Assembly: GCA_048213135.1 (NCBI GenBank)
Contig: PS015009.1
Location: 620,001-684,000, forward strand
Source: Reclinomonas americana ATCC 50394
Lineage: Eukaryota
Length of the DNA: 64,000 bases
Direction of reading: 5' to 3'
Made by a program: the position numbers and the translations under genes. This document shows positions 34,879-51,040 of this stretch, one piece after another. Position 1 is the stretch's first letter. Every line of letters begins with the position of its first letter. The notes beneath the pieces are model-generated. The model was not told the DNA's origin, did not search any database, and saw only the letters and a program-made list of their open reading frames with translations.

Positions 34879-34906
34879 AAAAAGTCCCGGCGTTTAACCG
34901 GGACTT
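34879..34906 (-). terminator. Terminator after giant adhesin gene
   Basis: AAGTCCCGG-CGTTTAA-CCGGGACTT with an A-run on the left. Confidence 0.75.
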
Positions 34907-34942: not shown

Positions 34943-37900
34943 TTATCGTGTGAGCACGATCCTGTAGCTGGCCCTTTCCTGTGTATTGTAAGCCTCCAGG
35001 ATGTACATGCCGCTGCCCAGGCTGGTCAGATCCATTGGTATTACCGATCCGTAAACCAGGCCGGTGAAACGCATGTCTCTTACTACAGCGCCCCTTGCAT
35101 CAATCACCCTCAGGTTAAACTCTTTGTAGTTGTCGCTGAAGAAGCCGATGTTGAACCTGCCGTTGCTTGGGTTAGGATAGATGCGTAATGCATCCTGCAG
35201 TTTCTGGTGCCTTTCTTTACAATCGTTCACGGTAATGTTGTAGTTCTCGATAGAGATACAACCATTGGCGTTAACAACAGTGTAAGTAAGGGTAGATACA
35301 CCCGTTCCTGCCGCAGTGGCTGAGAATTTGTCTCCGCCGGTGATACCGCGTCCTGTCCAGGTACCGCCTGCTGGTTCAGCTTTCAGGGTTACGATGGTGT
35401 CGGTCAGACAAACCCTTGGCGGAACTTTTGCAAAATTGATATTTGGCAGACCAAACACGATGAGTGTTGCGGTATTCGATATTACGGTGTTGCAGGTACC
35501 GGTAACAACTGCACGGTACTGGTAGAAGCTGAACAGTACAGTTGGGTTAGGTACAGTGTATGATGCAGATGTAGCACCCGGTATGTTCACGAAACCACTG
35601 CCCGTGTTCACCTGCCATTGGTAAGTGATGCCGGTTCCGGTTGCCGCTACAGTGAATGTAGGACTGCCACCGAAGCAAATGGTGATGGAAGCCGGTTGCT
35701 GTGTGATCACCACAGGGTTGTTCACAGTCAGTACAGCCTGGTTGCTGGTTACCGGTGTTGGCGGACAAGTACCGCTGATCACCACCTGGTACCTGTAGTT
35801 ATTCATTGCTGCAGTTACACCGGTGATGGTAAGTGTGGCTGTTGTTGCACCACCGTATACACCACCATTGGTGATATTGGTGAACGGACCACCTGCGCCT
35901 GTAGTGCTTAACTGCCATTGGTAGGTAAGACCTGTTCCGGCGGCCACTACGGTGAAGCTGGTATTGGCACCAACACAAGCTGCTGTATTAGCAGGATGCG
36001 TGGTAATGTTCGGAGGCGTATTCACGGTCAGTGTTGCCGCGGTGGTATTTTGAACACCGCATGTACCGGTTACTTCCAAACGGTATTGGTAACCATTCAT
36101 ACCCGCTGTTGCACCGGTGATGGTAAGCGTTGCAGTAGTAGCGCCGCTGTATACACCGCCGTTGGTTACATTGGTGAAACCGCTGCCGGTATTCACCTGC
36201 CATTGGTAAGAAAGACCCAGGCCGGTTGCCGCTCCTGTGAAGGTTACGTTACCACCGGCACAGATGGTCTGGCTGGTTGGGTTCGCAGTGATCACAGTTG
36301 ACGGGTTAACCGTAATGGTGAAGGTGATCGGTGTACCGGTACAGGTTACTGATCCGTTGGTATAAGATGGTGTTACGGTAATGGTAGCCGTTACAGGTGT
36401 GGTGCCGGTGTTAACCGCTGTGAAAGAAGCGATGTTGCCGGTACCGCTGGCGGCCAGTCCGATAGACGTGGTGTTGTTGGTCCAGCTGTATACTGTTCCT
36501 GCAACTGTACCATTGAAGTTGATCGCCGGTGTAGCAGAACCGTTACATACTGTTTGGTTGGCAACCGGATTCACGTTCGGTGTCGGGTTCACCGTAATGG
36601 TGAAGGTCCTTGAAGCACCGGTACATGTTGTGCCGCCATTGGTGTAAGACGGTGTTACGGTGATGGTAGCTGTTACAGGGGCGTTGGTGGCATTGGTCGC
36701 TGTGAACGATGCAATGTTACCGGTGCCGCTGGCTGCCAGGCCGATAGATGTGTTGTTATTGGTCCAGTTGTATACCGTACCCGCAACAGATCCTGTAAAG
36801 GTTACTGCTGCTGTCGCGGAGTTGTTACATACAGTCTGGTTAGCCACTGCATTCACCGTTGGTGTCGGGTTCACCGTAATGGTGAAGGTAACCGGTGCGC
36901 TGGTACAGGTAGTACCGCCATTGGTATAAGACGCTGTTACAGTGATGGTGGCTGTTACAGGAGCATTAGTGGCATTCACCGCGTTGAATGATGCGATATC
37001 GCCGCTGCCGCTCGCTGCCAGGCCGATGGACGGTGTATTGTTGGTCCAGTTGTACACGATCGTACCGCCAGTAGTTGGACTAGTGAAGGTAACCGCTGTT
37101 GTCGGAGCGCCGTTACATACCACCTGGTTGGCCACGCTGTTTACAACAGGCGTTGGATTAACCGTAATGGTGAAGGTAACCGGTGCGCTGCTGCAGGTAG
37201 TACCGCCATTGGTATAAGAAGCAATCACGGTGATGGTAGCTGTTACAGGATCATTGGTGGCATTCACCGCGTTGAATGATGCGATGTTACCGCTGCCGCT
37301 CGCTGCCAGGCCGATCGACGGTGTGCTGTTGGTCCAGTTATAAACGATTGTTCCGCCGGTAGTCGGGCTGCTGAAGTTAACAGCAGCTGTCGGAGCACCG
37401 TTACATACGGTTTGGTTAGGCACGCTGTTCACAACAGGCGTTGGGTTAACCGTAATAGTGAAGGTCCTTGGTGCGCTGGTACAGGTAGTACCACCGTTGG
37501 TATAAGAAGCGATAACAGTGATAGTGGCTGTTACAGGAGCATTGGTGGCATTCGTTGCGGTGAAAGCAGGAATGTTGCCGGTGCCGCTGGCGCCCAGGCC
37601 GATGGATGTATTGTTGTTGGTCCAGTTGTATACAATGGTACCGCCGGTTGTTGGACTGCTGAAGAATACATCGGCAGTCATTTCACCGTTACATACTACC
37701 TGGTTCGATACGTTGTTCACGATCGGAGTCGGGTTAACCGTAATGGTGAAGGTAACCGGTGCACTGGTACAAGTGGTACCGCCATTGGTATAAGAAGCGG
37801 TCACGGTGATGGTAGCTGTTACAGGAGCGTTGGTGGCATTGGTCGCTGTGAAAGAAGCGATGTTACCGCTGCCGCTGGCTGCCAGGCCGATGGATGTGGT

Positions 37901-40900
37901 ATTGTTGGTCCAGTTGTACACGATGGTACCGCCGGTTGTCGGGCTGCTGAAGTTAACTGCCGTTGTCGGAGCACCGTTACAGATCACCTGGTTAGGCACG
38001 CTGTTCACAACAGGTGTTGGGTTCACCGTAATGGTGAAGGTCCTTGGTGTACCGGTACAGGTAGTACCACCATTAGTATAAGATGGTGTTACGGTTATGG
38101 TAGCAACTACTGGAGCATTGCCGGTGTTGATCGCATTGAAAGATGCGATGTTACCAGTGCCGCTCGCTGCCAGTCCGATAGAAGGCGTGTTGTTGGTCCA
38201 GTTAAACACGGTACCTGATACAGCGCCGGTGAAAGTAACCGCGGTTGTTGGTGCGCCGTTACATACTACCTGGTTAGCCACTGCATTCACAGTTGGTGTT
38301 GGGTTCACCGTAATGGTGAAGGTAGTTGATGTACCGGTACAGGTTGTACCACCATTGGTATAAGACGGTGTTACGGTTATAGTAGCCGTTACAGGGTTGG
38401 TGCCCGCATTGATCGCGTTGAACGATGCAATGTTACCGCTGCCGCTGGCTGCCAGGCCGATGGACGGTGTGTTGTTGGTCCAGTTATAAACCGTACCTGG
38501 TACAGCACCGCTGAAGTTAACCGCTGTTGTCGGAGCACCGTTACATACTACCTGGTTAGCCACTGCATTCACAGTAGGTGTTGGGTTCACCGTAATGGTG
38601 AAGGTAGTTGGTGTACCGATACAGGTGGTACCGCCATTGGTGTAAGATGGTGTTACCGTTATAGTAGCTGTTACAGGAGCAGTGCCGGTGTTGATCGCGT
38701 TGAAAGAAGCGATGTTGCCGGTACCACTGGCTGCCAGGCCGATTGACGTTGTATTATTGGTCCAGTTGTACACGATGGTGCCGCCGGTGGTCGGGCTGCT
38801 GAAAGTAACCGCCGTTGTCGGGGCACCGTTACATACTACCTGGTTCGGTACGGAATTAACCGTAGCGGTTGGGTTAACCGTGATGGTAAATGTAATGGGT
38901 GAACCTGTACAAGTAGTGCCGCCATTGGTATAGCTCGGAGTTACTGTGATCGTAGCGGTTACAGGAGCCGTGCCCGTATTGATCGCGTTGAACGATGTTA
39001 TGTTGCCGCTGCCGCTGGCTGCCAAACCAATAGACGGTGTATTGTTGGTCCAGTTATAAACAGTGCCGGTTACAGCACCGCTGAAGTTAACCGCGGTTGT
39101 CGGGGCACCGTTACATACTACCTGGTTAGCCACTGCATTTACAGTTGGTGTCGGGTTCACCGTAATGGTGAAGGTAGTTGGTGTACCGGTACAGGTGGTA
39201 CCACCATTGGTATAAGATGGTGTTACGGTTATGGTAGCCGTTACAGGAGTTGTGCCGGTATTGATCGCGTTGAATGAAGCGATGTTGCCGGTACCGCTGC
39301 CTGCCAGGCCGATTGACGTTGTATTGTTGGTCCAGTTGTACACCGTACCTGATACAGAACCACTAAAGTTTACAGCAGTCGTTGGCGCACCGTTACATAC
39401 AACCTGGTTGGCCACTGCATTCACAGTAGGTGTTGGGTTAACTGTAATGGTGAAGGTTATCGGTGTACCGGTGCAGGTAGTTCCAGCATTGGTATATGAA
39501 GGTGTTACTGTAATGGTAGCTGTTACAGGAGCAGTACCGGTATTGATCGCGTTGAAAGATGCAATGTTACCTGTTCCGCTCGCTGCAAGACCGATAGATG
39601 GTGTGTTGTTGATCCAGTTGTAAACGGTTCCTGCTACCGCACCGCTGAAGTTAACAGCAGCTGTTGGTGCACCGTTACATACCACCTGGTTGCCTACTGC
39701 ATTTACAGTTGGAGTTGGGTTTACAGTATATGTAAAGGTTGTCGGTGTTCCGGCACAAGTCACCCCAATCATGTAAGTTATGGTCACTACTCCATTACCG
39801 GCATTATCTCCACTCACATTAATTTGTGATGTACCGGTATTATAAGAGGAGCCGCCACCGCCTGCACAACCATCCGAGTCTCCACAGGAGCCACCGCCAT
39901 AACCACCACCGCCGCCGGAAGAACCGCAGCAGCCTGTGCTGTATCCGCCACCGCCGCCGCCATAACCACCGTTACCTGCAGCTGCGCCGGGATACATATT
40001 ACCGCCCACAGCGCCGCCACCCATTGTGGCAACACCATTACCCGAGAAACCACCTCCCGAAGCGCCGTATCCTGTACATAGTCCGCCGTTTGGTCCGGCA
40101 ACACCAGCTAATCCATTCCTCGATGGTGTTGGTATTCCCGCGCCGCTCGTAGTGCCTGAAAGGCCTTGTCCGCCATTATTGCCGCCTAACACATTACAAT
40201 GGAAGGCACCGCCGCCGCCGCCTGCAATAATCAGGGGGCTTGATGTTACAGAGTTGACTACAAAGCTTCCTCCGCCGCCGCCGGTACCGCAACCAGATAC
40301 AGTATTATTACCGCCCTGGCCGCCGACAAGAATATTCAGTACCTGTCCGGGAGTCACAGCAAATGTGCCGGTCATAGATGCGCCCGAGCCGCCGATAAAG
40401 TTCTGTCCGCCGCTCTGGCCGGTTGAATTTCCGCCTTTAGCTCCCTTGGCAGTTATCACTATTGAAGTAACGCCTGCAGGAACTGTCCAGTTTTGCATAC
40501 TTCCTGTGTAATTGAAAGTTTGCGTTGATGATGATAAGGGAGTAAAGGTCTGCGGTGTTACGGTTACCGTTGCAACTACCGGAGCATTAGTAGCGTTCAC
40601 AGCATTGAAAGATGCAATGTCGCCGGTTCCGCTGGCTGCAAGACCTATTGAAGGCGTGTTATTGGTCCAATTGAACATAACCCCGGCTGGCGTACCAGTG
40701 AAAGCAACCGGTGCTGTTGGTGCGCCATTGCATATTACCTGGCTAGAAACCGGGTTGACAGTTGGAGTAGGGCTAACAGTTATGGTTCCGTTTGCCGTTA
40801 TGGTTCCGCAACCACCGGTTAATGTAACCGTATAAGTATACGGCGATCCTGCTGCAGAAGTTGGCGTACCGCTGATCGTTACTACATTGGCAGCCCAGTT

Positions 40901-43900
40901 ACCGGTTACACCAGTTGGCAATCCGCTGAAGGTTGCACCCGTTGCACCCGTGGTTGAATAAGTGATATTCGTTATGGCTGAGTTTTGGCAAACGGTTTGA
41001 GCATTGGTACCCGCTGCCGATGTCAGCGTGATGGTATTATTCGGTGTCACGGTGATGGTACCCGTAGCAGTAGTAATACCGCAACCTCCTGTGAGTGTAA
41101 CGGTATAATTGAATGGAGATCCTACTGTTGAGCTCGGCGTACCGCTGATCGTTACTACATTGGCAGCCCAGTTACCGGTTACACCGGCAGGCAATCCGCT
41201 GAAAGTAGCGCCGGTAGCACCGGTAGTACTGTAAGTAATAGGAGTGATCGGTGTATTGATACAAACGGTTTGTGCGTTGGTACCTGCTGCCGATGTCAGC
41301 GTGATGGTATTATTCGGTGTTACAGTGATCGTACCGTTAGCTGTTGTAGTAGGGCCACAACCGCCGGTCAGGGTAACTGTATAACTGAACGGAGAACCTA
41401 CAGATGATGCAGGTGTGCCGCTGATGGTCACCACGTTCGCAGCCCAGTTACCGGTTACACCTGCGGGCAGTCCGCTGAAGGTGGCGCCGGTAGCGCTCAC
41501 GGTAGAATAAGTGATGTTAACGATCGGTGTATTGATACAAACGGTTTGTGCATCTGTACCTGCCGCGGAAGTCAGCGTGATGGAATTGTCCGGGATCACG
41601 GTAACAGTAGGCTTGTTGGTCAGCACAAGATTGCAATAAGGCACAGGAGATACACCCTGCCATACGCCTGCCAGTCCTGTTGAATTGATAGCATTGGCTG
41701 AATAATCTTTTGCGTTGCCGGAACCTTCGCTGATCCACCAGCTGGCCACCAGTGTGGGGTTGCCGGTACTGGTCAGGAAAGACAATTGGTTGGCAGCAAT
41801 CTGGGCCTGTGTACGCACACTGTTCCAGATTCTTACATTATCAATATTACCCCTGAACTGGTTAAAGTTACCACCTGCGTCAGAGCCAATGTGTCCGCCG
41901 CTGGAAGTTACATTGATCGCAGGAACACCACCTACAGTTCCGATGGAAGTTCCATTCACAAACAATTCAACCGTACCGGATACATAAGTACAGGCAATGT
42001 GGTACCACTGTCCGTTCACGAATGTGAATGGTCTTGAGAAATCGCCCGCACTGTGACGGGTAAAGGTGAGCTGCGTTTGGTTACTGCTCACACCCAAAGC
42101 ATAGCTTCCGTCTTTATTGAAAAGACGACCGAAGTCAGGATCACCGTCAGGTTTGATCCATCCCTCAATGGTAAAGTTATTGGTCACGTCCAGCGCAGCA
42201 TTTTGCGGAATGGCAAAACCAGACTGGCCGCCGTTCAGGTAAACAGAGTTGCTGTCTGTTTCTGCCAGTACATTAAATGTTGTATTGCTGAAAAGGTTAC
42301 CTGTCGGGAAGTTAAGGGCTGCACCTGTTCCGGTTGCAGGACCGGAAACAACTACGTTGGAAGGATCAATACGTAATGTATAGTTGATACCCGGTTGTGT
42401 TGCTGCCACGGTAACTGTAGATCCTGTTCCGGTACAAACACTTGTTGGTGATGCGGTAACTGTCTGATCAACGATCGGGCAGGAAGTGATCACCAGGGTA
42501 TAGGTTGCGCCGTTACCGAAACATCCGTTCGCATCGGTTGCCCTCACCACGATCGGGAAGGTACCGGTTGCTGTTGGAGTTCCGCCCAGTACACCTGCTG
42601 CTGACAAGGTCAAACCTGCAGGCAGTGAGCCGCTGAATAAGCTGAAGTTCGTAGTGCCTATACCACCGGTTTGTGTAAAGGTCTGGCTGAAAGGAATACC
42701 AGTCTGACCAGTTGTAACAGCCGGGTTGGTTACGGTGATGGCTTGACAGCCGATTACCAGGTTGTAGGTCGCACCATTGCCGAAACAACCATTACCATCG
42801 GTAGCCCTTACCACAATGGGGTAAGTACCTGCCGGGGCAGATGGTGTTCCGCTCAGTACACCGGCAGCTGACAGGGTAAGGCCGTTAGGCAATGTACCGC
42901 TGAATACGCTGAAGGTTGCACCGCCGATAGCGCCGGTTTGTGTAAAGGTCTGGCTGAAGGCTGTACCATTGGTACCGGTTGCAACACCGGGGTTGGTTAC
43001 AGAGATCGTTTGACAACTGATCACCAGATTATATGTCGGGCTATTACCTGTACAGTTGTTACCATCGGTTACCCTCACCACAATCGGGAAAGTACCGGAT
43101 TGTGTAGGTGTACCGCTCAGTACGCCGGCAGCAGATAAAGTAAGGCCGGTTGGTAATGTGCCGCTGAATACGCTGAAGGTTGCACCGCCGATAGCACTGG
43201 TCTGTGTAAATGTCTGGCTGAAAGCAGTACCTACTGTACCTGTTGTGGTACCCGGGTTGGTCACCGTAATGGTCTGGCAACTGATCACCAGGTTATAGGT
43301 TGTGCCTGTTGCGGTACAGCTGAGGTTATCGGTAACATTCACTACAATCGGGAAAGTACCTACCACGGTAGGTGTTCCGCTCAGTACACCGGCAGCAGAT
43401 AAAGTGAGGCCGGTTGGCAGTGTGCTTGATGTAGAGAAAGTATATGGTGTTGAACCACCGGAAGCAGTGAAGGTCTGGCTGAAAGCAGTGCCTGCTGTTC
43501 CTGTGGTTACACCCGGGTTGGTCACCACGGGTTTATTGATCACGATGGAAGCCCTCGCTGGTGTCGTTTCTGCCGCAGGTACATTATCTACAACACCATT
43601 CACGGTTCCTGTACCGCCATTAGCACCGGCCGTATAAGTTACGGTGGCGGTACCGGCAGCTGTTATATTAGGTTGTGCGCCGGACAAAGTTCCGAGGGTG
43701 GCGCTGAATGTAATGGGTAATCCGATCACCCTTACCAGGTTCGCTAAAGCAATAGACGTTCCTGCAGAGTTGGTGAGGAAACTGGCTGTTACAACAGATG
43801 TACCGGAGGTATAGCAAACAGGACTGGTAGCTGCTGTTAATTTCAGTTGCAGCCAGGTTGCGGTATTGAGTGTACCTACACCACCGGAGCCGGTAATGGC

Positions 43901-44989
43901 GGCCCTGTCGCAGGTGCCCGCAGCTGAAGGACCGGTATTGCAACCCCACCAGTTATCGGTGGCGTTTACGTTGCCCTGTGCGCTGGACATGGCCAATGCG
44001 CTTGGAGCAAGTGTTGCTGTATTGTTGACAAAACGATTGTACTGGATCATCATCGTATTGCCCACATCAAATGAGTTGATGGTTCTTATGGCACCACCCA
44101 CACCGGAAGTACCGGATGCGGAGTTAGAGGTAAATGTATTCCTGAGGATGTTAACAGTGAAGGTAATGCCTGCGGTGATCCTGCCCTGTGCAGCCACATG
44201 TATCGCACCGCCGCCATTTCCGCCGTTGGCTGTAACACTGTTATTATTAAAAGTAGAGTTGGTAATCGTCACAGCGCCGTTTCCCGCGCCGGCAAGATTT
44301 TCGAGGAAGTAACTTACAGCACCGCCATCACTTTTGGAGTTGCTGTTGTTACTGAATGTACAGTTGTCGATGGTAAGGGAACCACCACCATTATAACGAA
44401 CGGCACCGCCCTGGGTTGCCGCTGTACCGGTTGCACCGATACTGTTACCACTGAAGATACAGCTGTTAAGTGTGAGGCTGTTGTTGGGACCACCAGCGAT
44501 GATAGCACCACCGCCATAAGTATCCGTATTCAGCTGACCGTTGGTGAACTGCACGTTATTGATAACGGTAGTGATGTTGGGGTTGGTACCTGTTGAGTTG
44601 ATGAAGAGGATACGATCGCGGTTGGTGTTGGTCATGTTCACAATCGTGGACGCGGCCGAGATACCGTTGATCGTAATGTTCTGTGTAAAATCACCGATGG
44701 TGATCTCACCCAGCGTCAGGTTATACGTCAACGCCTGGAGGTTGACCGTATGTGTACCGCCCACGGCGTTGGCCGCTTCAAGCGCAGACCGGAAGGAGAT
44801 ATTGCCGGAGGCATCCAAACCCGTACCTGCTGCGGGATTCACCGCATGCGTATCATTGGTGGTGTTGACATTAAAAACAGTCGCGGATACAGTTAGGGTC
44901 AGTACCATCGCGAATACAAAAAGCAATCCTGCTTTAATGTGGTGGAGTAGATGTGATTTCATGGTATTCGTTTTGTCAAAATGTTGCAT
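34943..44989 (-). CDS. Giant T9SS-secreted multidomain adhesin (beta-helix, putative Ig, LamG, Gly-rich, PKD-like repeats, type-A CTD)
   Basis: Sec signal (...LTLTVSA); CSLREA-like ISFRSALEAAN; GGAI-type beta-helix; four He_PIG-like repeats (LPTGLTLSAAGVLSGTP); LamG (FTIEGWIK...WYHIAC...IDNVRIW); three TLTSAAGT repeats; thirteen ~94-96 aa repeats; three Ig; IYPNP...GMYIL CTD. The start may be the second Met. Confidence 0.9.
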   Translation of the reverse strand: MQHFDKTNTMKSHLLHHIKAGLLFVFAMVLTLTVSATVFNVNTTNDTHAVNPAAGTGLDASGNISFRSALEAANAVGGTHTVNLQALTYNLTLGEITIGDFTQNITINGISAASTIVNMTNTNRDRILFINSTGTNPNITTVINNVQFTNGQLNTDTYGGGAIIAGGPNNSLTLNSCIFSGNSIGATGTAATQGGAVRYNGGGSLTIDNCTFSNNSNSKSDGGAVSYFLENLAGAGNGAVTITNSTFNNNSVTANGGNGGGAIHVAAQGRITAGITFTVNILRNTFTSNSASGTSGVGGAIRTINSFDVGNTMMIQYNRFVNNTATLAPSALAMSSAQGNVNATDNWWGCNTGPSAAGTCDRAAITGSGGVGTLNTATWLQLKLTAATSPVCYTSGTSVVTASFLTNSAGTSIALANLVRVIGLPITFSATLGTLSGAQPNITAAGTATVTYTAGANGGTGTVNGVVDNVPAAETTPARASIVINKPVVTNPGVTTGTAGTAFSQTFTASGGSTPYTFSTSSTLPTGLTLSAAGVLSGTPTVVGTFPIVVNVTDNLSCTATGTTYNLVISCQTITVTNPGTTTGTVGTAFSQTFTQTSAIGGATFSVFSGTLPTGLTLSAAGVLSGTPTQSGTFPIVVRVTDGNNCTGNSPTYNLVISCQTISVTNPGVATGTNGTAFSQTFTQTGAIGGATFSVFSGTLPNGLTLSAAGVLSGTPSAPAGTYPIVVRATDGNGCFGNGATYNLVIGCQAITVTNPAVTTGQTGIPFSQTFTQTGGIGTTNFSLFSGSLPAGLTLSAAGVLGGTPTATGTFPIVVRATDANGCFGNGATYTLVITSCPIVDQTVTASPTSVCTGTGSTVTVAATQPGINYTLRIDPSNVVVSGPATGTGAALNFPTGNLFSNTTFNVLAETDSNSVYLNGGQSGFAIPQNAALDVTNNFTIEGWIKPDGDPDFGRLFNKDGSYALGVSSNQTQLTFTRHSAGDFSRPFTFVNGQWYHIACTYVSGTVELFVNGTSIGTVGGVPAINVTSSGGHIGSDAGGNFNQFRGNIDNVRIWNSVRTQAQIAANQLSFLTSTGNPTLVASWWISEGSGNAKDYSANAINSTGLAGVWQGVSPVPYCNLVLTNKPTVTVIPDNSITLTSAAGTDAQTVCINTPIVNITYSTVSATGATFSGLPAGVTGNWAANVVTISGTPASSVGSPFSYTVTLTGGCGPTTTANGTITVTPNNTITLTSAAGTNAQTVCINTPITPITYSTTGATGATFSGLPAGVTGNWAANVVTISGTPSSTVGSPFNYTVTLTGGCGITTATGTITVTPNNTITLTSAAGTNAQTVCQNSAITNITYSTTGATGATFSGLPTGVTGNWAANVVTISGTPTSAAGSPYTYTVTLTGGCGTITANGTITVSPTPTVNPVSSQVICNGAPTAPVAFTGTPAGVMFNWTNNTPSIGLAASGTGDIASFNAVNATNAPVVATVTVTPQTFTPLSSSTQTFNYTGSMQNWTVPAGVTSIVITAKGAKGGNSTGQSGGQNFIGGSGASMTGTFAVTPGQVLNILVGGQGGNNTVSGCGTGGGGGSFVVNSVTSSPLIIAGGGGGAFHCNVLGGNNGGQGLSGTTSGAGIPTPSRNGLAGVAGPNGGLCTGYGASGGGFSGNGVATMGGGAVGGNMYPGAAAGNGGYGGGGGGYSTGCCGSSGGGGGYGGGSCGDSDGCAGGGGSSYNTGTSQINVSGDNAGNGVVTITYMIGVTCAGTPTTFTYTVNPTPTVNAVGNQVVCNGAPTAAVNFSGAVAGTVYNWINNTPSIGLAASGTGNIASFNAINTGTAPVTATITVTPSYTNAGTTCTGTPITFTITVNPTPTVNAVANQVVCNGAPTTAVNFSGSVSGTVYNWTNNTTSIGLAGSGTGNIASFNAINTGTTPVTATITVTPSYTNGGTTCTGTPTTFTITVNPTPTVNAVANQVVCNGAPTTAVNFSGAVTGTVYNWTNNTPSIGLAASGSGNITSFNAINTGTAPVTATITVTPSYTNGGTTCTGSPITFTITVNPTATVNSVPNQVVCNGAPTTAVTFSSPTTGGTIVYNWTNNTTSIGLAASGTGNIASFNAINTGTAPVTATITVTPSYTNGGTTCIGTPTTFTITVNPTPTVNAVANQVVCNGAPTTAVNFSGAVPGTVYNWTNNTPSIGLAASGSGNIASFNAINAGTNPVTATITVTPSYTNGGTTCTGTSTTFTITVNPTPTVNAVANQVVCNGAPTTAVTFTGAVSGTVFNWTNNTPSIGLAASGTGNIASFNAINTGNAPVVATITVTPSYTNGGTTCTGTPRTFTITVNPTPVVNSVPNQVICNGAPTTAVNFSSPTTGGTIVYNWTNNTTSIGLAASGSGNIASFTATNATNAPVTATITVTASYTNGGTTCTSAPVTFTITVNPTPIVNNVSNQVVCNGEMTADVFFSSPTTGGTIVYNWTNNNTSIGLGASGTGNIPAFTATNATNAPVTATITVIASYTNGGTTCTSAPRTFTITVNPTPVVNSVPNQTVCNGAPTAAVNFSSPTTGGTIVYNWTNSTPSIGLAASGSGNIASFNAVNATNDPVTATITVIASYTNGGTTCSSAPVTFTITVNPTPVVNSVANQVVCNGAPTTAVTFTSPTTGGTIVYNWTNNTPSIGLAASGSGDIASFNAVNATNAPVTATITVTASYTNGGTTCTSAPVTFTITVNPTPTVNAVANQTVCNNSATAAVTFTGSVAGTVYNWTNNNTSIGLAASGTGNIASFTATNATNAPVTATITVTPSYTNGGTTCTGASRTFTITVNPTPNVNPVANQTVCNGSATPAINFNGTVAGTVYSWTNNTTSIGLAASGTGNIASFTAVNTGTTPVTATITVTPSYTNGSVTCTGTPITFTITVNPSTVITANPTSQTICAGGNVTFTGAATGLGLSYQWQVNTGSGFTNVTNGGVYSGATTATLTITGATAGMNGYQYRLEVTGTCGVQNTTAATLTVNTPPNITTHPANTAACVGANTSFTVVAAGTGLTYQWQLSTTGAGGPFTNITNGGVYGGATTATLTITGVTAAMNNYRYQVVISGTCPPTPVTSNQAVLTVNNPVVITQQPASITICFGGSPTFTVAATGTGITYQWQVNTGSGFVNIPGATSASYTVPNPTVLFSFYQYRAVVTGTCNTVISNTATLIVFGLPNINFAKVPPRVCLTDTIVTLKAEPAGGTWTGRGITGGDKFSATAAGTGVSTLTYTVVNANGCISIENYNITVNDCKERHQKLQDALRIYPNPSNGRFNIGFFSDNYKEFNLRVIDARGAVVRDMRFTGLVYGSVIPMDLTSLGSGMYILEAYNTQERASYRIVLTR
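36300..40775 (-). repeat. 13 tandem ~282-288 bp coding repeats (first copy interrupted by Gly-rich domain)
   Basis: Unit TPTVNAVANQVVCNGAPT...WTNNTPSIGLAASGTGNIASF...CTGTPxTFTITVNP, counted 13 times in the translation. Coordinates approximate. Confidence 0.85.
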
Positions 44990-45129
44990 TGTGTTTCCCT
45001 TTTTTTGAATCGGGCGGTTAACGAAAAAATCTGTTGGCTAAAAAACTGGTTTTTAACCAACAGAGATCTCGGATTTTCTTTATGTTCTTCTGCACGAAAA
45101 GTGCAGTTAGCTTTGGTTCTTTTATTCCC

Positions 45130-45660
45130 TTAGCCTCTTGGCGGGAACACACCCTGCAGTGCGATACAATAATTCACCACGTTGTATGGCATCATATTGT
45201 TGTGCGGCAGGCTGCCCCCGGAAATACCGATAGCCATTGGGCTCATCATTACCTGTGTACCCGGTGCATTCGCGAAAAAGTTGGGCGCCGGCCTTCCATC
45301 AGGATTGGCCCAAAGGTTACCGTTCGGGTCTGCCTGTGTTCCTTTCAGTTTGGCATTAACGGGAGTGTGATTGTGTCCCGGCATTTCAGAAGTGATAAGG
45401 GTTACCGACTGCTCACCGCCTACCTCACCGAGGAAACGGTCCGTCAGGCCCGGTCCCTGGCCGGCACTCATAGGTGCAGATCCCTGGAAGTTGGGCAGCG
45501 CGAAAGTGGTTTTACCATCACCGCCATAATAAGTTCCCAGTAATGAAAAAAGTGCTGTGTTCTGAGAGATCGGCAACAGTTGACCGTTGCACTGTGCCCA
45601 GCCTGTTGGAGCGAAGTTGCATCCGAACATTCTTATTTCTGCTACAAATGGACTACTCAT
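45130..45660 (-). CDS. Phage tail-collar domain protein (MdpB/microcystin-dependent-like), paralog 3
   Basis: FVAEIRMFGCNFAPTGWAQCNGQLLPISQNTALFSLLGTYYGGDGKTTFALP; MPGHNH; PHNNMMPY...CIALQGVFP. Confidence 0.92.
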   Translation of the reverse strand: MSSPFVAEIRMFGCNFAPTGWAQCNGQLLPISQNTALFSLLGTYYGGDGKTTFALPNFQGSAPMSAGQGPGLTDRFLGEVGGEQSVTLITSEMPGHNHTPVNAKLKGTQADPNGNLWANPDGRPAPNFFANAPGTQVMMSPMAIGISGGSLPHNNMMPYNVVNYCIALQGVFPPRG

Positions 45661-45693
45661 ATTAATAGGTTTAATTGCTGTGTTAGAATTGGT

Positions 45694-46197
45694 TTAGTTA
45701 CGGGACGGGAATATGCCCACTAATGCGATACAGATATTCGTTACCGAATAAGGCGCCATGTTATTATGTGGCTGCGAGCCGCCTGCATTGGAAAGCGCAG
45801 TGGGACTCATCAATTCATTGGGCGTAGCGGCATAAGGCGAAAAGCCTGTGTTGCTGGCCCAGTAGTTATTGAGCGGCGTGGCGGCATTAGGCGATAAAGA
45901 ACTGGCTATCGCGATGTGATTGTGCTGCGGCATTTCACTTATAGTAAGTGTATGCGCTGATTCGCCTGCCATCTGGCCCTGTACAAGACCCTGGCCAATA
46001 TGCATAGGCACCCTTCCGCGAAGATCAGGAAGCCCGAAAGTGGTTTGGCCATTACCCCCGTAAGTAGTACCAAGCAGGGAGAACAGCGCCTGGTTCTGGT
46101 TGATAGGCAGCAGCTGCCCGTTGCATTGCGCCCAGCCTTTTGGCGGGAAGTTGAATGAAAATATCGTCAATTGTGACATGTATGGTTCAGTTGCCAT
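45694..46197 (-). CDS. Phage tail-collar domain protein, paralog 2
   Basis: FPPKGWAQCNGQLLPINQNQALFSLLGTTYGGNGQTTFGLPDLRGRVP; MPQHNH; PHNNMAPY. Confidence 0.92.
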   Translation of the reverse strand: MATEPYMSQLTIFSFNFPPKGWAQCNGQLLPINQNQALFSLLGTTYGGNGQTTFGLPDLRGRVPMHIGQGLVQGQMAGESAHTLTISEMPQHNHIAIASSLSPNAATPLNNYWASNTGFSPYAATPNELMSPTALSNAGGSQPHNNMAPYSVTNICIALVGIFPSRN

Positions 46198-46230
46198 AGT
46201 ATTAATATTTTTTGAGCTTTACAATCAGGT

Positions 46231-46731
46231 TTAGTTCTGTGTAGGGTATACTCCATATAATGAGATGATAAAGTTGACCACCTGGTAAGGGATCATATTA
46301 TCATGCGGCTGCCCACCACCTGTTGGCTGGATGGAAGCATTATTCATGGTTGAATTACCCGGCGCTACATCATAAGGCGTGGTACCACTGGCTGCGGCCC
46401 ATACATTACCATTGGGCGAGTCTGCCTGTGAAGCAGAATTGGCTTGCGGAACGTGAGTATGTACAGGAATTTGCTGAGTGGTCAGCGTTACTGATTCAGT
46501 GCCCGACAGTTCACCGATCTGGAAACTGTTGCCCATGTGCACCGGCACACGCCCCCGGAAATCAGGGAGACCGAAAGTGCTCTGACCATCGCCACCGTAA
46601 GTGGTGCCGATAAGATTGAATAAAACATCATTTTCTGAGATAGGCATGAGTTGCCCGTTACACAAAGCCCACCCTGCAGGGGCGAAGTTGCCGCCAAACA
46701 TCCTGATTTCTCCAACGAAAGGTTGTCCCAT
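46231..46731 (-). CDS. Phage tail-collar domain protein, paralog 1
   Basis: FVGEIRMFGGNFAPAGWALCNGQLMPISENDVLFNLIGTTYGGDGQSTFGLPDFRGRVP; IPVHTH; PHDNMIPY. Confidence 0.92.
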   Translation of the reverse strand: MGQPFVGEIRMFGGNFAPAGWALCNGQLMPISENDVLFNLIGTTYGGDGQSTFGLPDFRGRVPVHMGNSFQIGELSGTESVTLTTQQIPVHTHVPQANSASQADSPNGNVWAAASGTTPYDVAPGNSTMNNASIQPTGGGQPHDNMIPYQVVNFIISLYGVYPTQN

Positions 46732-46981
46732 AAAGTTTGATTTTTTAATTGTGTAGGGTAAAATTGTTTCGAATTATTCCTGGGCAGAATGAGATAAGCC
46801 GGTGCTTAAACAGGTATGCGGACTCCGTGGTACAGTGCAGGACAAGCAATGCTGAATCAGATCGACTCATAAGTTCTAGCTAGGTTTAGGAGCCTAAAAC
46901 TAGGTCATCTGGATTGAGAATGCAAGTTTTACATTAAAAAAAAAATCATTTTCGGAAAAACAGGTATTTATACGGGGATGT

Positions 46982-47920
46982 TTATAAGCTCTTAAAGTGT
47001 CCACCTGGCTGTACCCCTAATCGTATAAGCGTACCCGGTTGTAAGAAACCCTCGTCGGTATACAGGTACCCTATGTTCAGCGTCCCGGCTGGCTTTACGG
47101 CAACAGAAAGAACATTTTCACTGATGGCAACAATGGTTCCGGGAGCGGCATTTTTATTATCAGCCAGCGGATCTTCACTGGCCTGGAGGAGGCGTATTAT
47201 TTTATTATTAAACATGGTTACGGCCCCTTTGTTCCAGGGGTTGCAGGCATTGATCAGCGCTACAATGGAAGCGGCGTCCATCTTTTCCCAGTCAATCACA
47301 ATATCAGCCTGGGTTTGCCGCTTAAAGTAACGGGCCTGCGATTCATCCTGCGGCTTAGAAGGAGGTGTTATACCCAACGCGATCATTTTAATGATGGTGC
47401 CGATCATGGAGCCCGCCAGTTCACCCAGCCGGGCATCCAGTATGCCATAAGTATCTTCAGGAAACAGGCGTGTCATTTCGCGGATCACGACCGGCCCTGC
47501 ATCCATGGCTTCTGCAAGGTGATGTATGGTAACACCCGCCTGCGCTTCCCTGTTCTTTATCTGCTGAAAGACCGGGTCGGCACCGCGGTATTGTGGCAAA
47601 GGACCGGGATGAACATTAAACAAACCATTGGCCGGGAGGGCTGCAAGGGATTGCGGTATTTTATAACTGAAGGTGATCACAAAACCAAGAGTGGCCTTGT
47701 GTTCCGCTATCGCTTTTTCGACTGCAGTTGCAAAATCCTTTTTCTCCAGGATGATCACCGGCACATTAAATGGCTGCAGCAATCCCGTGAGTTCTTCCAC
47801 CAGTTCTTTACAATGTGATGGTATGCCCACGAAGCAAAGCAGCCGCGACATAACGAGGTTGCGTATGGAAGGTATCGCCAGCCTTGCGCTGCAGAGTATG
47901 AATGTGCGGGTTTCGTTCAT
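46982..47920 (-). CDS. Formyltransferase (Fmt-like N- and C-domains), substrate unknown
   Basis: FNVHPGPLPQYRG, GVTIH, MDAGP (N/H/D catalytic set); Fmt-C-like IDW...ACNPW. Start set at MNETR, 2 nt after the upstream stop. Confidence 0.88.
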   Translation of the reverse strand: MNETRTFILCSARLAIPSIRNLVMSRLLCFVGIPSHCKELVEELTGLLQPFNVPVIILEKKDFATAVEKAIAEHKATLGFVITFSYKIPQSLAALPANGLFNVHPGPLPQYRGADPVFQQIKNREAQAGVTIHHLAEAMDAGPVVIREMTRLFPEDTYGILDARLGELAGSMIGTIIKMIALGITPPSKPQDESQARYFKRQTQADIVIDWEKMDAASIVALINACNPWNKGAVTMFNNKIIRLLQASEDPLADNKNAAPGTIVAISENVLSVAVKPAGTLNIGYLYTDEGFLQPGTLIRLGVQPGGHFKSL

Positions 47921-47922
47921 GA

Positions 47923-49059
47923 TCAGTAACAGAGATAGGTGTTGGTCCAGCCGGAAACAGCACCTGTTGTATGATGACTGGTAAATATTTTCCATTCGGA
48001 TGCGTACTCATCCGGGCCGATCGTTTTTCTTTGCTGCTCACCACCAGCTATTGACAACCGGTATGCGGGGCTGGTATAATACAGCGTGTCACCGTCCAGT
48101 TGCAACTCACCACGCGGACTGTCGAGGTTCACTTTTTTCAGCGCTTCCGCCACCACCGGCCCATCGGAATAATCGTTGGGTAACGCCGTGAGCATGTGGT
48201 GCAATATCAGTCCTGTCTCCCATCCCAGTAATGAAAATATAGTCGGTTCTTTTTTGGAACGTTGCGCATAGGCTTCTTTAAAAGCTGTATTGGCCGGTGT
48301 GTCTGCAGCAGTAAACCACGACTGGTAACCCTGAACCGTAAACGCAGCGTTTGCGGGAATGGCTTCCAGCGCCGCGGGTTGCAGCATCATCGGTGAAACA
48401 AAAAGATCCGCAGATCGGTCAAGTTGTTTATACAAAACAGATGCAGGCCAGGTATCTGAAACGCAAAGCAAGGTATTCGTATCCGGGAACTGGTCCATCT
48501 TCTGTACAAGATCGCCTGTATGGTATTGGTTGTTGTACAACTGATTGTTGACATCATTGAACAGCACATTACCTTCGTGTTTGATGAAGCTGTTCATCAT
48601 GGCCGCAGCATGCAGGTAACCGCAATCGTAGAAAGTGCTGGAAGTACCTGCCGCGGAGGTTTTCGCGGCGGCATCGGCACCCGAAAGCCAGCAAAGAAAA
48701 GAATGCAGTAAAGTGAGATGAATAACATTCTCCTGCGCAATCCAGTTAACCGGGTAATTGGCGCCCGGGTTAACCACAATGAGCAGCTTACCCGAGGCAT
48801 ATACCAGCGGCTTCATCATTTCCAGTACGCGTTCATCGATATAAGCCAACAGCACATCTACGCCTTCTGTCATCAGCAGTTTTTCCGCAGCCAGGTATAC
48901 CGCTTTTTCTTCACCGCCAAAAGACACGCTTTCCAGCGTAAAGCGAATAGCATCATCTGCCAAACCTTTCGCTTTCAGGCAGGCCTTCAGGCCATCCATG
49001 AATTCAAACCCGATACCGGGATAAACTTTTGAACTGGGAGAGAGGAATCCAACATGCAT
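47923..49059 (-). CDS. Type-1 periplasmic-binding-protein fold (LivJ-like) lacking signal peptide
   Basis: Begins directly with HVGFLSP; AAEKLL..EGVD; N.AFKEAY; LLGWETG; LDSPRG. No hydrophobic N-terminus. Confidence 0.8.
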   Translation of the reverse strand: MHVGFLSPSSKVYPGIGFEFMDGLKACLKAKGLADDAIRFTLESVSFGGEEKAVYLAAEKLLMTEGVDVLLAYIDERVLEMMKPLVYASGKLLIVVNPGANYPVNWIAQENVIHLTLLHSFLCWLSGADAAAKTSAAGTSSTFYDCGYLHAAAMMNSFIKHEGNVLFNDVNNQLYNNQYHTGDLVQKMDQFPDTNTLLCVSDTWPASVLYKQLDRSADLFVSPMMLQPAALEAIPANAAFTVQGYQSWFTAADTPANTAFKEAYAQRSKKEPTIFSLLGWETGLILHHMLTALPNDYSDGPVVAEALKKVNLDSPRGELQLDGDTLYYTSPAYRLSIAGGEQQRKTIGPDEYASEWKIFTSHHTTGAVSGWTNTYLCY

Positions 49060-49185
49060 AAGGGTAACTGTGTTTTGCCGGCGAATTAATATTATTTTAT
49101 TGTCAAGGCAAAATATATTTTATTGTGTTTATTCCTCAAAGTTTGTATTTTGTTGCCTATTCCAAAACTAATAAACCACTACGGC

Positions 49186-49842
49186 ATGAATACCAGGAGA
49201 AAATTCCTTGTCCAGGGAGGACTGGCTGCAACGGCAGCGCTTACCGCCAAACCTTTCAACAGCATTGCCAGTCTTACATCGCCATTAACAGGCACCGATT
49301 TCAGTAATAACAAATTTCTGCTGCTGCATACCAGCAACAATGAAGCGCATACTTTCAACCGCATCAGCACGCTGAGCAGGAAGTTCGCCAATGTTTTACT
49401 GGTACACTCCGGTGAAGCTGCAACCCACACCCCGCTGAAGTTTGACGTAACACACCCGGCCGCTTCCGGTTACCAGGTACTCCACAAAGGCGAGGTTAAG
49501 ATTGGTATCGTACACACCGACAGCAGTGTTACCGATGTAGTAAGCGACATCAATACCCGCGCCGCTTACCTGAAAAAAGAAAGGGATTGCAACTTCGTAG
49601 TTTGCGTGTCTTCACTTGAAGCAAAAGGTAAGGTAAATGATAAAGCGCTGGCCGAAAGATCAGCAGGTGTAGACCTCATCATCAGCAGGCACCATACCAA
49701 TTACTGCGGACAACCTTTCATTATACTGAACCGTGAGAACCATGAAGTGATCATCGACAACGCCGCCGGTAAAGAAGAAGCCATTGGCAGCATGGCAGTA
49801 AGTTTCTGCAGCAAAGGCCTGAAAAGCCAGCTCGCCTTTTAA
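49186..49842 (+). CDS. Tat-signal protein, degenerate metallophosphoesterase/5'-nucleotidase-like
   Basis: MNTRRKFL twin-arginine motif; LLHTS, LLVHSG, KIGIV, LKKERDCNFVVCVSSL and VDLIISRH echo 5'-nucleotidase segments without the metal ligands. Confidence 0.7.
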   Translation: MNTRRKFLVQGGLAATAALTAKPFNSIASLTSPLTGTDFSNNKFLLLHTSNNEAHTFNRISTLSRKFANVLLVHSGEAATHTPLKFDVTHPAASGYQVLHKGEVKIGIVHTDSSVTDVVSDINTRAAYLKKERDCNFVVCVSSLEAKGKVNDKALAERSAGVDLIISRHHTNYCGQPFIILNRENHEVIIDNAAGKEEAIGSMAVSFCSKGLKSQLAF

Positions 49843-49880
49843 TCCCCGCGCAACACGCTACCCTCCCTGTAACGCTTATT

Positions 49881-50603
49881 ATGATCAAATACCTGCAGCT
49901 ACCCTTCCGGTTCGACGCCGGCAGGTTAAGGGAAGAAGTACAACAACTGGATAATAAAAACTGGAAGCATCATTTCCAGAAACTCCATTATGAAGGAGAC
50001 TGGACGGCTATTCCCCTGCGCAACACAGACGGGCGGGCTGCCAATATTCACATCTCCCCCGACGAGGGCGCACCTTATCACGATACAGAGTTACTGCAAT
50101 ACTGCCCGTATACACGGGAGGTGCTGGCACAGTTCCATTGCCAGCTGAAGTCGGTACGGTGGATGCGACTGAATGCCGGCGCTGTGATCAAAGAGCATAC
50201 CGATAAAGAACTGCATTTTGAAAGCGGCATGGTGCGTATACACATTCCCGTTACTACAAGCGAAAAGGTGGAATTTTATCTCGACAATGAACAGCTGCGT
50301 TTGCAGGAAGGCGAATGCTGGTACATGAATTTTAACCTGCCGCACCGCATCAGTAATAACAGTGATATTGACCGGATACACCTGGTGATCGATGCCAATG
50401 TAAACGACTGGCTAACGGAGTTATTCAACAGCGACGATATCAGCAACAGGAAAGAAATGGCCCAGCCCGATCCTTTTGATATCGAAACAAAGAAAACCAT
50501 ACTGGGTCATTTCAGGGATATGAATACCGCCAAAAGTCATGAGCTGGCCAACGCGCTGGAAAAAGAAATTGCCGAACTTGAATCCGCATTACGCGACAGA
50601 TGA
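49881..50603 (+). CDS. Aspartyl/asparaginyl beta-hydroxylase-like Fe(II)/2OG dioxygenase
   Basis: IKEHTD (HxD), RIHIPV, PHRISN...DRIHLVID. Confidence 0.88.
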   Translation: MIKYLQLPFRFDAGRLREEVQQLDNKNWKHHFQKLHYEGDWTAIPLRNTDGRAANIHISPDEGAPYHDTELLQYCPYTREVLAQFHCQLKSVRWMRLNAGAVIKEHTDKELHFESGMVRIHIPVTTSEKVEFYLDNEQLRLQEGECWYMNFNLPHRISNNSDIDRIHLVIDANVNDWLTELFNSDDISNRKEMAQPDPFDIETKKTILGHFRDMNTAKSHELANALEKEIAELESALRDR

Positions 50604-51040
50604 AAAAGATCGTCCTGCTTTATATTGCTTCTATTCTACTTACAGCCGTATTCTCTTACTCGCTGAATGTATTCATGCACGAAACACTGCTTTGGCTTAC
50701 CATTAAAACCATGCTCATCCCCTGTTTCACGTGGAGTATGCTGATGCTGCTGGCCTGGAACAGGCTGAAGGGAGAACGAAGGATGCAATACCTCACGATC
50801 GCCGCGTGGGTATGCGCTATTGGTTCTGCCGCATTGGTGCCTGGCGGCATTTATAATTTTTCAGCTAAATATCCCGATGTCAACTGGTCGTTGTTCAGCG
50901 TGATCTTTTGTGTGGTACTGATGTCTGTTCTGTTTTATATCTGGCTGAAAGCAGCCCGCTTTTCACCGTGGTGGTGGACCGCGTACAATATCCTTGCCAT
51001 TACCAACATGACCATTTTCTATCTTGCTGCCAGGCCCTGA
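50600..51040 (+). CDS. Hypothetical membrane protein (4-5 TM)
   Basis: ATGA overlap with the hydroxylase stop; hydrophobic segments throughout. Confidence 0.7.
   Translation: MKKIVLLYIASILLTAVFSYSLNVFMHETLLWLTIKTMLIPCFTWSMLMLLAWNRLKGERRMQYLTIAAWVCAIGSAALVPGGIYNFSAKYPDVNWSLFSVIFCVVLMSVLFYIWLKAARFSPWWWTAYNILAITNMTIFYLAARP

Follow-up and report, generated by a model that had tools for sequence, protein, structure and literature searches.

We analysed a 64 kb stretch of contig PS015009.1 from the assembly of Reclinomonas americana ATCC 50394 (positions 620,001 to 684,000, hereafter the window), in which a locus at 34.9-51.0 kb encodes three collar proteins of phage type next to a giant adhesin of the type IX secretion system (T9SS). 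The carrier is a Chitinophagaceae-like bacterium, soil or plant-associated, and the locus represents one copy of an accessory cassette conserved in Chitinophagaceae and other Bacteroidota. The core of this cassette comprises three paralogues of phage fibre tips, a binding-fold protein paired with a second formyltransferase, and a large T9SS-sorted surface protein. The cassette is a real, conserved and apparently undescribed system, a domesticated phage recognition module whose function we infer, and it probably forms a cell-surface recognition device. The explanation that we favour for the whole, with moderate confidence, is a surface device made of a phage-tip triplet and a T9SS adhesin, served by modifying enzymes in the cytoplasm.

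We collected relatives of the cassette in two samples. The binding-fold protein has 371 relatives at E ≤ 1e-3, with Ferruginibacter, Terrimonas or Chitinophagaceae as their named sources, and a profile search of species-representative genomes with it yielded 51 loci. When 201 evenly sampled genomes of the family were searched, 19 carried the binding-fold protein at E ≤ 1e-40; 18 of their regions were taken, two of them duplicates of loci from the first sample. Both samples together gave 67 distinct loci. The first-pass annotation of the window, made from the sequence alone, had proposed a neighbourhood survey for its gene set, and this survey bore the proposal out: three collars, a signal-less binding-fold protein, a formyltransferase-like enzyme and a giant T9SS protein co-occur across genomes. 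The collars adjoin the signal-less binding-fold gene in all of the 62 loci that could be judged (the contigs of the other five end within ~1.1 kb and were therefore excluded from this count). Of the 62 loci whose contigs extend 1 kb or more downstream, 55 have the formyltransferase-like gene directly after the binding-fold gene. A large open reading frame (ORF) on the same strand, i.e., of at least 700 aa or running off the contig end, follows within 400 bp after the cassette in 48 of 55 testable loci, and three of the seven misses (L002, L011 and L017) are artefacts of the counting rule or of a frameshift. L011 comes from a nanopore-based assembly, and its collar1, formyltransferase-like gene and adhesin are each broken by a frameshift or a stop; these breaks may represent gene decay or assembly errors.

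The genes were found in three orders. In type I, the order of the window (42 loci including the window, plus one with collars on both sides), the binding-fold gene is followed by the formyltransferase-like gene, collars 1, 2 and 3, and the adhesin. In type II (19 loci) the collars come first, followed by the binding-fold gene, the formyltransferase-like gene and the large protein; the binding-fold proteins of these loci are 24-34% identical to that of the window. The third order (type III) joins a more divergent Peripla_BP_6 protein and a formyltransferase-like gene to the collars. The linkage was kept through rearrangement and through such divergence, which favours function rather than mere descent as its cause.

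The three genes of the opposite strand are less constant. A protein with a signal for twin-arginine translocation (Tat) and the fold of a 5'-nucleotidase is encoded in 41 of the 67 loci (33 of the 42 type I and 3 of the 19 type II loci), and this pseudo-5'-nucleotidase is a frequent but non-obligatory partner. The hydroxylase, present in 17 of the 67 loci, is an optional accessory. The 146-aa membrane protein had been counted in the set by the first-pass annotation; a homologue occurs in one of the 67 loci, and the protein is probably a bystander outside the cassette.

All three collar proteins match the Pfam hidden Markov model of the Collar domain with 93-99 bits (cut-off 24) and are mutually 48-51% identical. 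Their derivation from phage fibres, suggested by the first-pass annotation, agrees with their full-length homology to minor-tail and fibre-tip proteins of phages. For collar1, the identity to minor tail proteins of Microbacterium phages reaches 44% across 92% of the protein, and 381 phage records match it in total, 55 of which are from Synechococcus phages. In the PDB, the profile of the collar family matched the long tail fibre 8KEC (E 5.4e-8) and gp12 of T4 (1OCY, E 0.0086). In each of the three collar alignments, all 30 rows have an invariant HxH motif, which we take to be the one that builds the axial metal site in gp12 and gp37 trimers. The least conserved block in each paralogue covers residues ~95-145, and a variable middle is as expected of a ligand-binding tip. 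The collar ORFs begin 4-10 residues ahead of the collar domain; the N-terminal shaft is missing.

The three positions of the triplet are distinct. The best-hit order was 1-2-3 in 36 of the 37 loci having three complete collars. In a quick maximum-likelihood tree of 114 collar proteins (3 x 38 rows), with SH-aLRT values as the only supports and no bootstrap, each position (p1, p2 and p3, with 38 of 38 rows each) makes up one side of a branch, with supports of 93, 99 and 91, respectively, the p2 (collar2) branch having the highest. The three groups show matching sub-clades. Since each positional group occupies one side of a branch, the triplication is older than the cassette's spread, with no homogenisation among the copies. 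Judging from these sequences, we regard the three collars as ancient positional orthologues.

The homology of the collars to phage minor tail proteins is also what a decaying prophage or tailocin remnant would leave behind, but nothing else in the locus resembles one. The first-pass annotation had reported that capsid, terminase, sheath, tube, baseplate and lysis genes are absent, and indeed the ORFs that we scanned from 30.8 to 56.3 kb include none of these, nor any other phage gene. The housekeeping flanks (LeuRS, DXS) are common to the window and L002, dozens of genomes have the cassette intact and in synteny, and the three paralogues were kept as ancient orthologue groups. We therefore give almost no credence to a remnant of this kind, or to a chance adjacency of unrelated genes.

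Fused collar proteins of other lineages bear on how the three chains might assemble. In single chains with three collar modules, 13 of 14 were fused in the order 1-2-3, and all three of the two-module proteins have the order 1-2. An N-terminal hydrophobic leader precedes 12 of the 14 three-module proteins, and other collar fusions bear PEP-CTERM, RTX plus Big_12, or Laminin_G_3 domains. The 1-2-3 fusions behind leaders argue for a 1:1:1 trimer that acts outside the cytoplasm. By extension, the collars of the cassette may form a 1:1:1 trimeric knob acting outside the cytoplasm, although none of this support comes directly from the locus of the window.

The adhesin is the second constant element of the cassette. 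Its Pfam domains are He_PIG (four copies), Laminin_G_3, Ig_3, Ig_7 and, at residues 3270-3343, Por_Secre_tail. This sorting domain scored 37.5 bits with PF18962 (cut-off 27) and 28 bits with the NCBIfam type A model TIGR04183 (cut-off 23), and 43.5 bits when the last 110 residues were searched alone. The N-terminus is basic and then hydrophobic, as read by eye, with a modelled helix at residues 9-30, and may be a Sec leader. A Phage_tube match inside the adhesin was dismissed as noise, having no significant stretch of its own. The sorting domain is general in the cassette: in the last 110 residues of 33 complete large proteins, including that of the window, 32 match Por_Secre_tail and five match CHU_C. 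The large proteins of type II have other architectures (Ig_3, and a SprB repeat in L062) with the sorting domain unchanged. In L056 the adhesin is directly followed by a PorP/SprF gene (Pfam), and L057 has a homologue (tblastn).

Among type I loci, conservation of the adhesin is confined to its head, i.e., residues 1 to ~500. In 34 of 36 loci this head comes immediately behind the collars, at 31-51% identity (tblastn). We found no Pfam family in residues 1-520; the alignment of the heads shows a leader, beta-helix repeats (GGA[IV]/FxxN-type) and an immunoglobulin (Ig) domain. The model of the head (pLDDT 86) resembles Rhombotarget A, the HK620 tailspike and the RbmB lyase in Foldseek, and its Ig part resembles invasin/intimin. 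T9SS cargo of type A is anchored by its C-terminus, hence the head would be the distal end of the fibre. The body of the window's adhesin contains 12 tandem copies of a 282-nt unit (94 aa) at 36303-39757, which are 78% alike. The contigs of relatives skip or rejoin within this array (e.g., 36408 to 39000), so the number of repeats probably varies between strains.

The formyltransferase-like protein has both Formyl_trans_N (PF00551) and Formyl_trans_C (PF02911) domains, and scored 125.3 bits with the equivalog model of Fmt (TIGR00460) against a cut-off of 201.5. Its closest matches in the PDB are E. coli Fmt (1FMT, E 1.6e-23) and then ArnA (1.1e-18). In the HMMER alignment, an Asn, a His and an Asp are aligned and identical to those of 1FMT; we take them to be the catalytic residues of the formyltransferase fold. 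The protein thus looks catalytically intact, judging by these residues. A true fmt is encoded elsewhere in five of five related genomes, with 244-284 bits (one split match gave 192, or 255 with the neighbour in frame), whereas the cassette copy scored 104-119 bits in the four of these five that carry it. The presence of a true fmt and the low TIGR00460 score show that the formyltransferase of the cassette is a second, specialised enzyme.

The binding-fold protein matches Peripla_BP_6 with 60.4 bits (cut-off 31.7, E 3e-16) and starts directly with the fold, with no export signal. Its nearest solved relatives, 4evq and 4ey3, are small-molecule binding proteins. We noted no transporter gene among the neighbours scanned, which are a subset of the neighbours in the 67 loci. 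The hydroxylase belongs to Asp_Arg_Hydrox (73.9 bits with a cut-off of 22.6, E 1.6e-20), is soluble, and scores far under the NCBIfam cut-offs of the named subfamilies (35.8 against 300 bits for nonproteo_OH, 22 against 500 for LpxO).

These enzymes and the collars are all cytoplasmic, unlike the presumably Sec-exported adhesin, which favours the collars as the target of the enzymes; a surface glycan or a small molecule is a possible target instead. In one such alternative, the enzymes modify a surface glycan or lipid (lipopolysaccharide (LPS), the T9SS anchor glycan or the capsule) that is the ligand of the collar trimer. The two would then make a lock-and-key pair, used for recognition of self or kin or for attaching the knob to the surface of its own cell. 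The recurring enzyme families do have members that modify sugars or lipids (the ArnA-like match and the weak match to LpxO given above, GNAT, sulfotransferase), the enzyme sets vary among collar clades, and phage and virophage tips of the collar kind are reported to bind LPS. Yet the cassette contains, as far as it was scanned, no glycosyltransferase, sugar-nucleotide or flippase genes, and the hydroxylase is soluble and falls far short of the LpxO cut-off. We know of no glycan pathway that includes a cytoplasmic binding-fold protein, which we also count against a modified glycan. Overall, this alternative seems to us rather improbable.

The collars also occur without close relatives of the binding-fold protein. 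Collar genes, usually in threes, were detected in 55 of the 201 genomes of the family sample, and all 19 carriers of the binding-fold protein are among these 55. We examined ten further collar loci (L070-L079), all of which were missed by the profile of close binding-fold proteins. Five of the ten (L070, L071, L074, L075 and L078) combine collars with an adjacent formyltransferase-like gene, and a gene homologous to the hydroxylase of the window is close by. The ~360-aa neighbour of the formyltransferase in this group is a Peripla_BP_6 protein in the four cases scanned, and both of two further neighbours scanned are sulfotransferases. L076 encodes collars and a formyltransferase-like protein, along with a protein of 507 aa that ends in a T9SS sorting domain. 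The collars of L072 are 64-68% identical to those of the window, and this locus keeps the Tat-type protein and a T9SS adhesin (1452 aa), but a GNAT acetyltransferase and a DUF6916 protein replace the pair of binding-fold protein and formyltransferase. In L077, signal-less collars lie between T9SS-sorted proteins, and no enzyme was seen beside them. Finally, the collars of L073 and L079 have N-terminal signal peptides and extensions of 100-150 residues (L073:8951-10700, L079:8584-10070), and the 19 kb of each locus contain no formyltransferase, binding-fold or hydroxylase gene.

Other accessory genes accompany the binding-fold protein in some loci and are absent from the window: a GNAT gene in 18 of the loci anchored on this protein (two of them duplicates), a CxxCxxCC protein in ten, and a PKHD-type 2-oxoglutarate oxygenase in four. 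Each of the three gene orders has loci with a hydroxylase, either a homologue of the window's PF05118 protein or one of PKHD type. Across these varied arrangements, an enzyme of N-acyl transfer (formyl or acetyl) and a hydroxylase recur beside signal-less collars. The first-pass annotation had proposed dedicated formylation and hydroxylation; the part that stands is the recurrence of formyltransferase-like and hydroxylase genes beside collar triplets in three arrangements, whereas the hydroxylase proved to be optional.

Several side observations were made in these loci. A family of HExxH-type proteins of ~170-186 aa, with no Pfam family, occurs in 20 loci of both gene orders and is absent from the window. 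Its gene lies between the Tat and binding-fold genes, or upstream of the collars (e.g., L005:8997-9557, L017:9381-9920, L058:4972-5475 and L059:13588-14109), and it mostly accompanies the hydroxylase (13 of the 17 hydroxylase loci). One genome (G082) has at least 30 Collar matches, on contigs C474, C292, C192 and C326, against one to four in the other 54 carriers; on C474 they form a run of more than a dozen tandem collar ORFs at about 3.1-10.9 kb. Another genome (G123) has Collar domains within open frames of 598-928 aa on four separate contigs, which may be another kind of fused collar protein.

The Tat-signal protein was described by the first-pass annotation as a pseudo-phosphoesterase, a description that fits our results. 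The profile of its family matched the N-domain of 5'-nucleotidases in the PDB (7d0v, 3.7e-8), and its model (pLDDT 83) resembles CD73/NadN (Foldseek 4h1s, 1e-9, TM 0.58-0.62 on the query). The window copy has no Pfam match, whereas the long members of the family are Pfam Metallophos proteins. Metal motifs are kept only in these long members (L003, L046); they are gone from the window copy and from most of the family, which also have a ~35-residue deletion. With ~218 aa against ~520 aa for 5'-nucleotidases, the protein also lacks the C-terminal substrate-binding domain. A twin-arginine motif, M-x(1-3)-RR-x-F, is present in 39 of 39 homologues and is followed by a hydrophobic stretch in the alignment. 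Hence the protein is a predicted substrate of Tat export.

A dead enzyme fold that keeps an export signal for folded proteins, beside signal-less collars of a secreted type, suggests hitch-hiking. In the most elaborate version of this idea, the collars would fold in the cytoplasm as a metal-centred heterotrimer, become N-formylated and hydroxylated there by dedicated enzymes, cross the inner membrane in folded form by riding on the Tat-signal protein, and be loaded on the distal beta-helix head of the adhesin. The result would be a "bacterial tail fibre", with tip and shaft exported by separate routes. The predicted complex of collars 1-3 with the mature Tat protein, made with no supplied alignments, had a median of 0.33 against a mark of 0.34, and the controls had 0.00, 0.00 and 0.10, a result that counts neither for nor against binding. 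We regard this full scenario as quite doubtful.

The explanation that we favour asks for less. The three collars would assemble 1:1:1 into one trimeric, metal-centred knob resembling a fibre tip, and, as in phage tips, its variable loops would bind the ligand, which is most likely a glycan. This knob would act outside the cytoplasm jointly with the adhesin, whose distal beta-helix/Ig head is here co-inherited with the collars; the idea of the first-pass annotation that the collars cap, decorate or partner the adhesin would fit such a role. Enzymes in the cytoplasm would supply an N-acylation or hydroxylation on which the system depends. This would be the role of the formyltransferase and the hydroxylase in the window, whereas a GNAT acetyltransferase, a sulfotransferase or a PKHD-type hydroxylase would fill the enzyme places elsewhere. 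The most economical target of such enzymes would be the signal-less collars, prior to leaving the cell. The Tat-signal pseudo-nucleotidase would be a lineage-specific helper, and the membrane protein a bystander.

A number of observations weigh against this explanation. All loci but ten were reached via the binding-fold protein and they share ancestry, so the counts do not represent independent events. The formyltransferase-like gene is missing in seven of 62 loci and the hydroxylase in 50 of 67; neither is therefore essential to the core. Just 19 of the 55 collar-bearing genomes have a close binding-fold protein, and L073 is a collar locus with no enzyme and no sorting-domain protein in 19 kb. 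A longer, fused form of the binding-fold protein was not found at E ≤ 1e-10, which is weak evidence. Further points concern export. Signal peptides are absent from all 111 collar proteins of 37 type I loci and from nearly all collars of types II and III, and no export route was identified. As a universal carrier of the collars the Tat protein had to be rejected: six of the ten cassette genomes with no adjacent copy have no homologue at all (E ≤ 1e-3). The first-pass annotation had placed this protein in the set; it is frequent there, but at best a lineage-specific helper.

Another account of the missing signals is that the collars stay in the cytoplasm. They would then form an intracellular module with the binding-fold protein, the formyltransferase and the hydroxylase, which for example binds, makes or senses a small N-formylated or hydroxylated compound, and the adhesin would only be co-regulated. 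All four kinds of protein lack export signals, and the solved relatives of the binding-fold protein do bind small molecules. Moreover, the two loci with signal-bearing collars (L073 and L079) show no such enzymes, so the enzymes go with the signal-less state. Three other lines of evidence point to the outside of the cell. The p1-p2-p3 fusions with leaders, PEP-CTERM, RTX or Laminin_G_3 place the module there in other lineages, the characterised relatives of the collars are all extracellular receptor-binding tips, and the link to T9SS cargo holds across three gene orders and differing adhesin architectures. We consider a purely cytoplasmic module unlikely.

We then compared the cassette with described systems. 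T4-type fibre tips (gp12, 1OCY; long tail fibre, 8KEC) share with it the Collar domain, one HxH per chain, the profile matches and, for the collars over their full length, a likeness of up to 44% to minor tail proteins of phages. The collars of the cassette differ from them in lacking the shaft and the part that attaches to the baseplate. T4-type tips use one chain three times and sit on a virion, whereas the cassette has three different chains and is chromosomal, with enzymes and a T9SS adhesin. T9SS adhesins of the SprB/RemA type have a cognate PorP/SprF protein, as known from gliding motility. The likeness lies in the giant, repetitive, T9SS-sorted protein, in the PorP/SprF genes near the adhesins of L056 and L057, and in the SprB repeat of L062; the adhesin of the window differs by its type A sorting domain and its beta-helix head. 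No collar, formyltransferase or binding-fold partner has been described for SprB/RemA-type adhesins, and our literature search found no paper that joins a tail collar with type IX secretion. With Fmt (1FMT) and the formyltransferase domain of ArnA, the cassette enzyme shares a common two-domain fold and the aligned Asn, His and Asp, but it is below the equivalog cut-off, is a second copy and starts 2 nt after the binding-fold gene. The partners in the cassette are each atypical of their families: the binding fold is no part of a transporter, the formyltransferase is distinct from Fmt, and the protein with the nucleotidase fold is no enzyme.

Small bacterial collars, often in tandem, are known as COG4675 or "microcystin-dependent proteins" (MdpB), and relatives of the window's collars are named so or "tail fiber protein". 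The context of the cassette is outside the description of this family, as far as the literature search reaches. The virophage DSLV2 has a tripartite tail, in which the products of three consecutive gp37-like genes are reported to form a heterotrimer with a receptor-binding domain, which binds cyanobacterial LPS (PMC12724248, 2025). The cassette, like DSLV2 and related cyanophage tripartite tails, has three consecutive paralogous genes, a likeness by description and not by measured homology. The DSLV2 tail is a component of a viral particle, with no formyltransferase, binding-fold protein, hydroxylase or T9SS adhesin. Another case is the shufflon-encoded fusion of a collar to the PilV tail on a conjugative pilus (PMC9881135). 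There too, a bacterium has repurposed a phage collar domain as the specificity tip of a surface appendage. The PilV collar is fused to a pilin and varied by DNA inversion, whereas the cassette has three free proteins by a T9SS adhesin and no inversion system was seen in it. The first-pass annotation knew of no mechanistic description of this gene set, and our literature search likewise found none; nor did it find, supplementary tables being outside its scope, a published description of collar triplets with T9SS adhesins or formyltransferases.

The features of the locus are listed in Table 1. All nine genes reported by the first-pass annotation are in place with their domains, as judged from ORFs, Pfam and NCBIfam. 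Six of them form the minus-strand arm and three the plus-strand arm, the two arms diverging from a common point. The collar genes are separated by 33 nt from each other, and 140 nt lie between collar3 and the adhesin. The longest ORF of the formyltransferase-like gene shares 73 nt with the upstream binding-fold gene; its likely start is an internal Met at 47920, 2 nt past the stop of that gene. For the Tat protein, the most likely start is the Met right before the twin arginines, at 49186. On one flank, the tested ORFs (30.8-56.3 kb) are an M23 peptidase, DXS and YkuD; on the other, they are DUF4932 and LeuRS. When L002 was compared with the window (31773-55223), the whole cassette was found between the same LeuRS and M23-peptidase/DXS genes. 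The adhesin of L002 has merely 995 aa, i.e., the chromosomal site is equal to that of the window and the length of the adhesin is very different.

Table 1. Features of the collar-adhesin locus, in window coordinates.
Feature	Position	Strand	Description
Terminator-like hairpin after the adhesin gene	34882..34906	-	10 pairs and T run; consensus scan
Adhesin	34943-44989	-	ORF, 3348 aa
Adhesin type A C-terminal sorting domain	34961..35182	-	PF18962 and TIGR04183
Adhesin head, residues 1 to ~500	43490..44989	-	putative leader, right-handed beta-helix, invasin-like Ig domain
Hairpin between collar3 and adhesin	45030..45064	-	15 pairs, then T run; consensus scan
Collar3	45130-45660	-	176 aa; PF07484, E 9e-27; no signal peptide
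Collar2	45694-46197	-	167 aa; PF07484, E 2e-28
Collar1	46231-46731	-	166 aa; PF07484, E 1e-28; also a weak Gp10_C match
Spacer between formyltransferase-like gene and collar1	46732..46981	-	250 nt
Formyltransferase-like gene	46982..47920 (likely start)	-	312 aa; PF00551 and PF02911; longest ORF 46982-47995
Binding-fold protein	47923-49059	-	378 aa; PF13458 (Peripla_BP_6); no leader
Tat-signal protein	49186..49842 (likely start)	+	218 aa; longest ORF 49123-49842
Hydroxylase	49881-50603	+	240 aa; PF05118, 73.9 bits
Membrane protein	50600-51040	+	146 aa, hydrophobic; no Pfam or NCBIfam family

Close relatives of the stretch (95-99% alike) were found in contigs of several public runs, some of which hint at expression; the runs used here are X1, X14, X19 and X20. 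In two metatranscriptome libraries of one study (X19 and X20), a contig at 41358-46869 covers the adhesin head and all three collars. Further contigs of that study cover 41432-44435 and 44451-46873, and separate contigs cover the Tat gene (49164-49860 and 49149-49598). RNA libraries may contain DNA, and a contig across several genes is no proof of one transcript. The contigs of the RNA libraries stop at 46869/46873, ~140 nt upstream of collar1, where contigs of DNA type go on; the terminal letters of one RNA contig resemble what we take to be a sequencing adapter. These positions may mark a transcript start, and the spacer at 46732..46981 probably contains a promoter and 5' leader of the collar genes, the contig ends being a weak hint in this direction. 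In X19 and X20, cover is slight or absent over the genes for the binding-fold protein, the formyltransferase and the hydroxylase, whereas runs of DNA type cross them; uncovered parts are not readable as unexpressed, nor can contig depth rank the genes. RNA-library contigs cross the hairpin at 45030-45064, a possible attenuator or terminator that could set the ratio of collar to adhesin transcripts. The totals of the promoter and terminator scans showed no enrichment over shuffled sequence (24 against 19.8, and 18 against a mean of 18.4), and the hairpins are therefore leads only.

Triplets of bacterial collars (COG4675/MdpB) are common and have no assigned function, and the cassette provides them with a concrete, testable setting. 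It ties a probably heterotrimeric knob of phage origin genetically to T9SS adhesins and to an unusual cytoplasmic pair, a binding fold with no transporter and a second formyltransferase. Cultured carriers exist, e.g., the Terrimonas isolate behind L003, which makes ordinary genetics and fractionation feasible. If the explanation that we favour is true, the cassette would reveal a new class of substrates for Fmt-like enzymes, possibly a new way of exporting signal-less proteins, and a natural set of diversified glycan-binding tips. It would also show the way in which Bacteroidota take over recognition modules of phages to adhere or to recognise kin.

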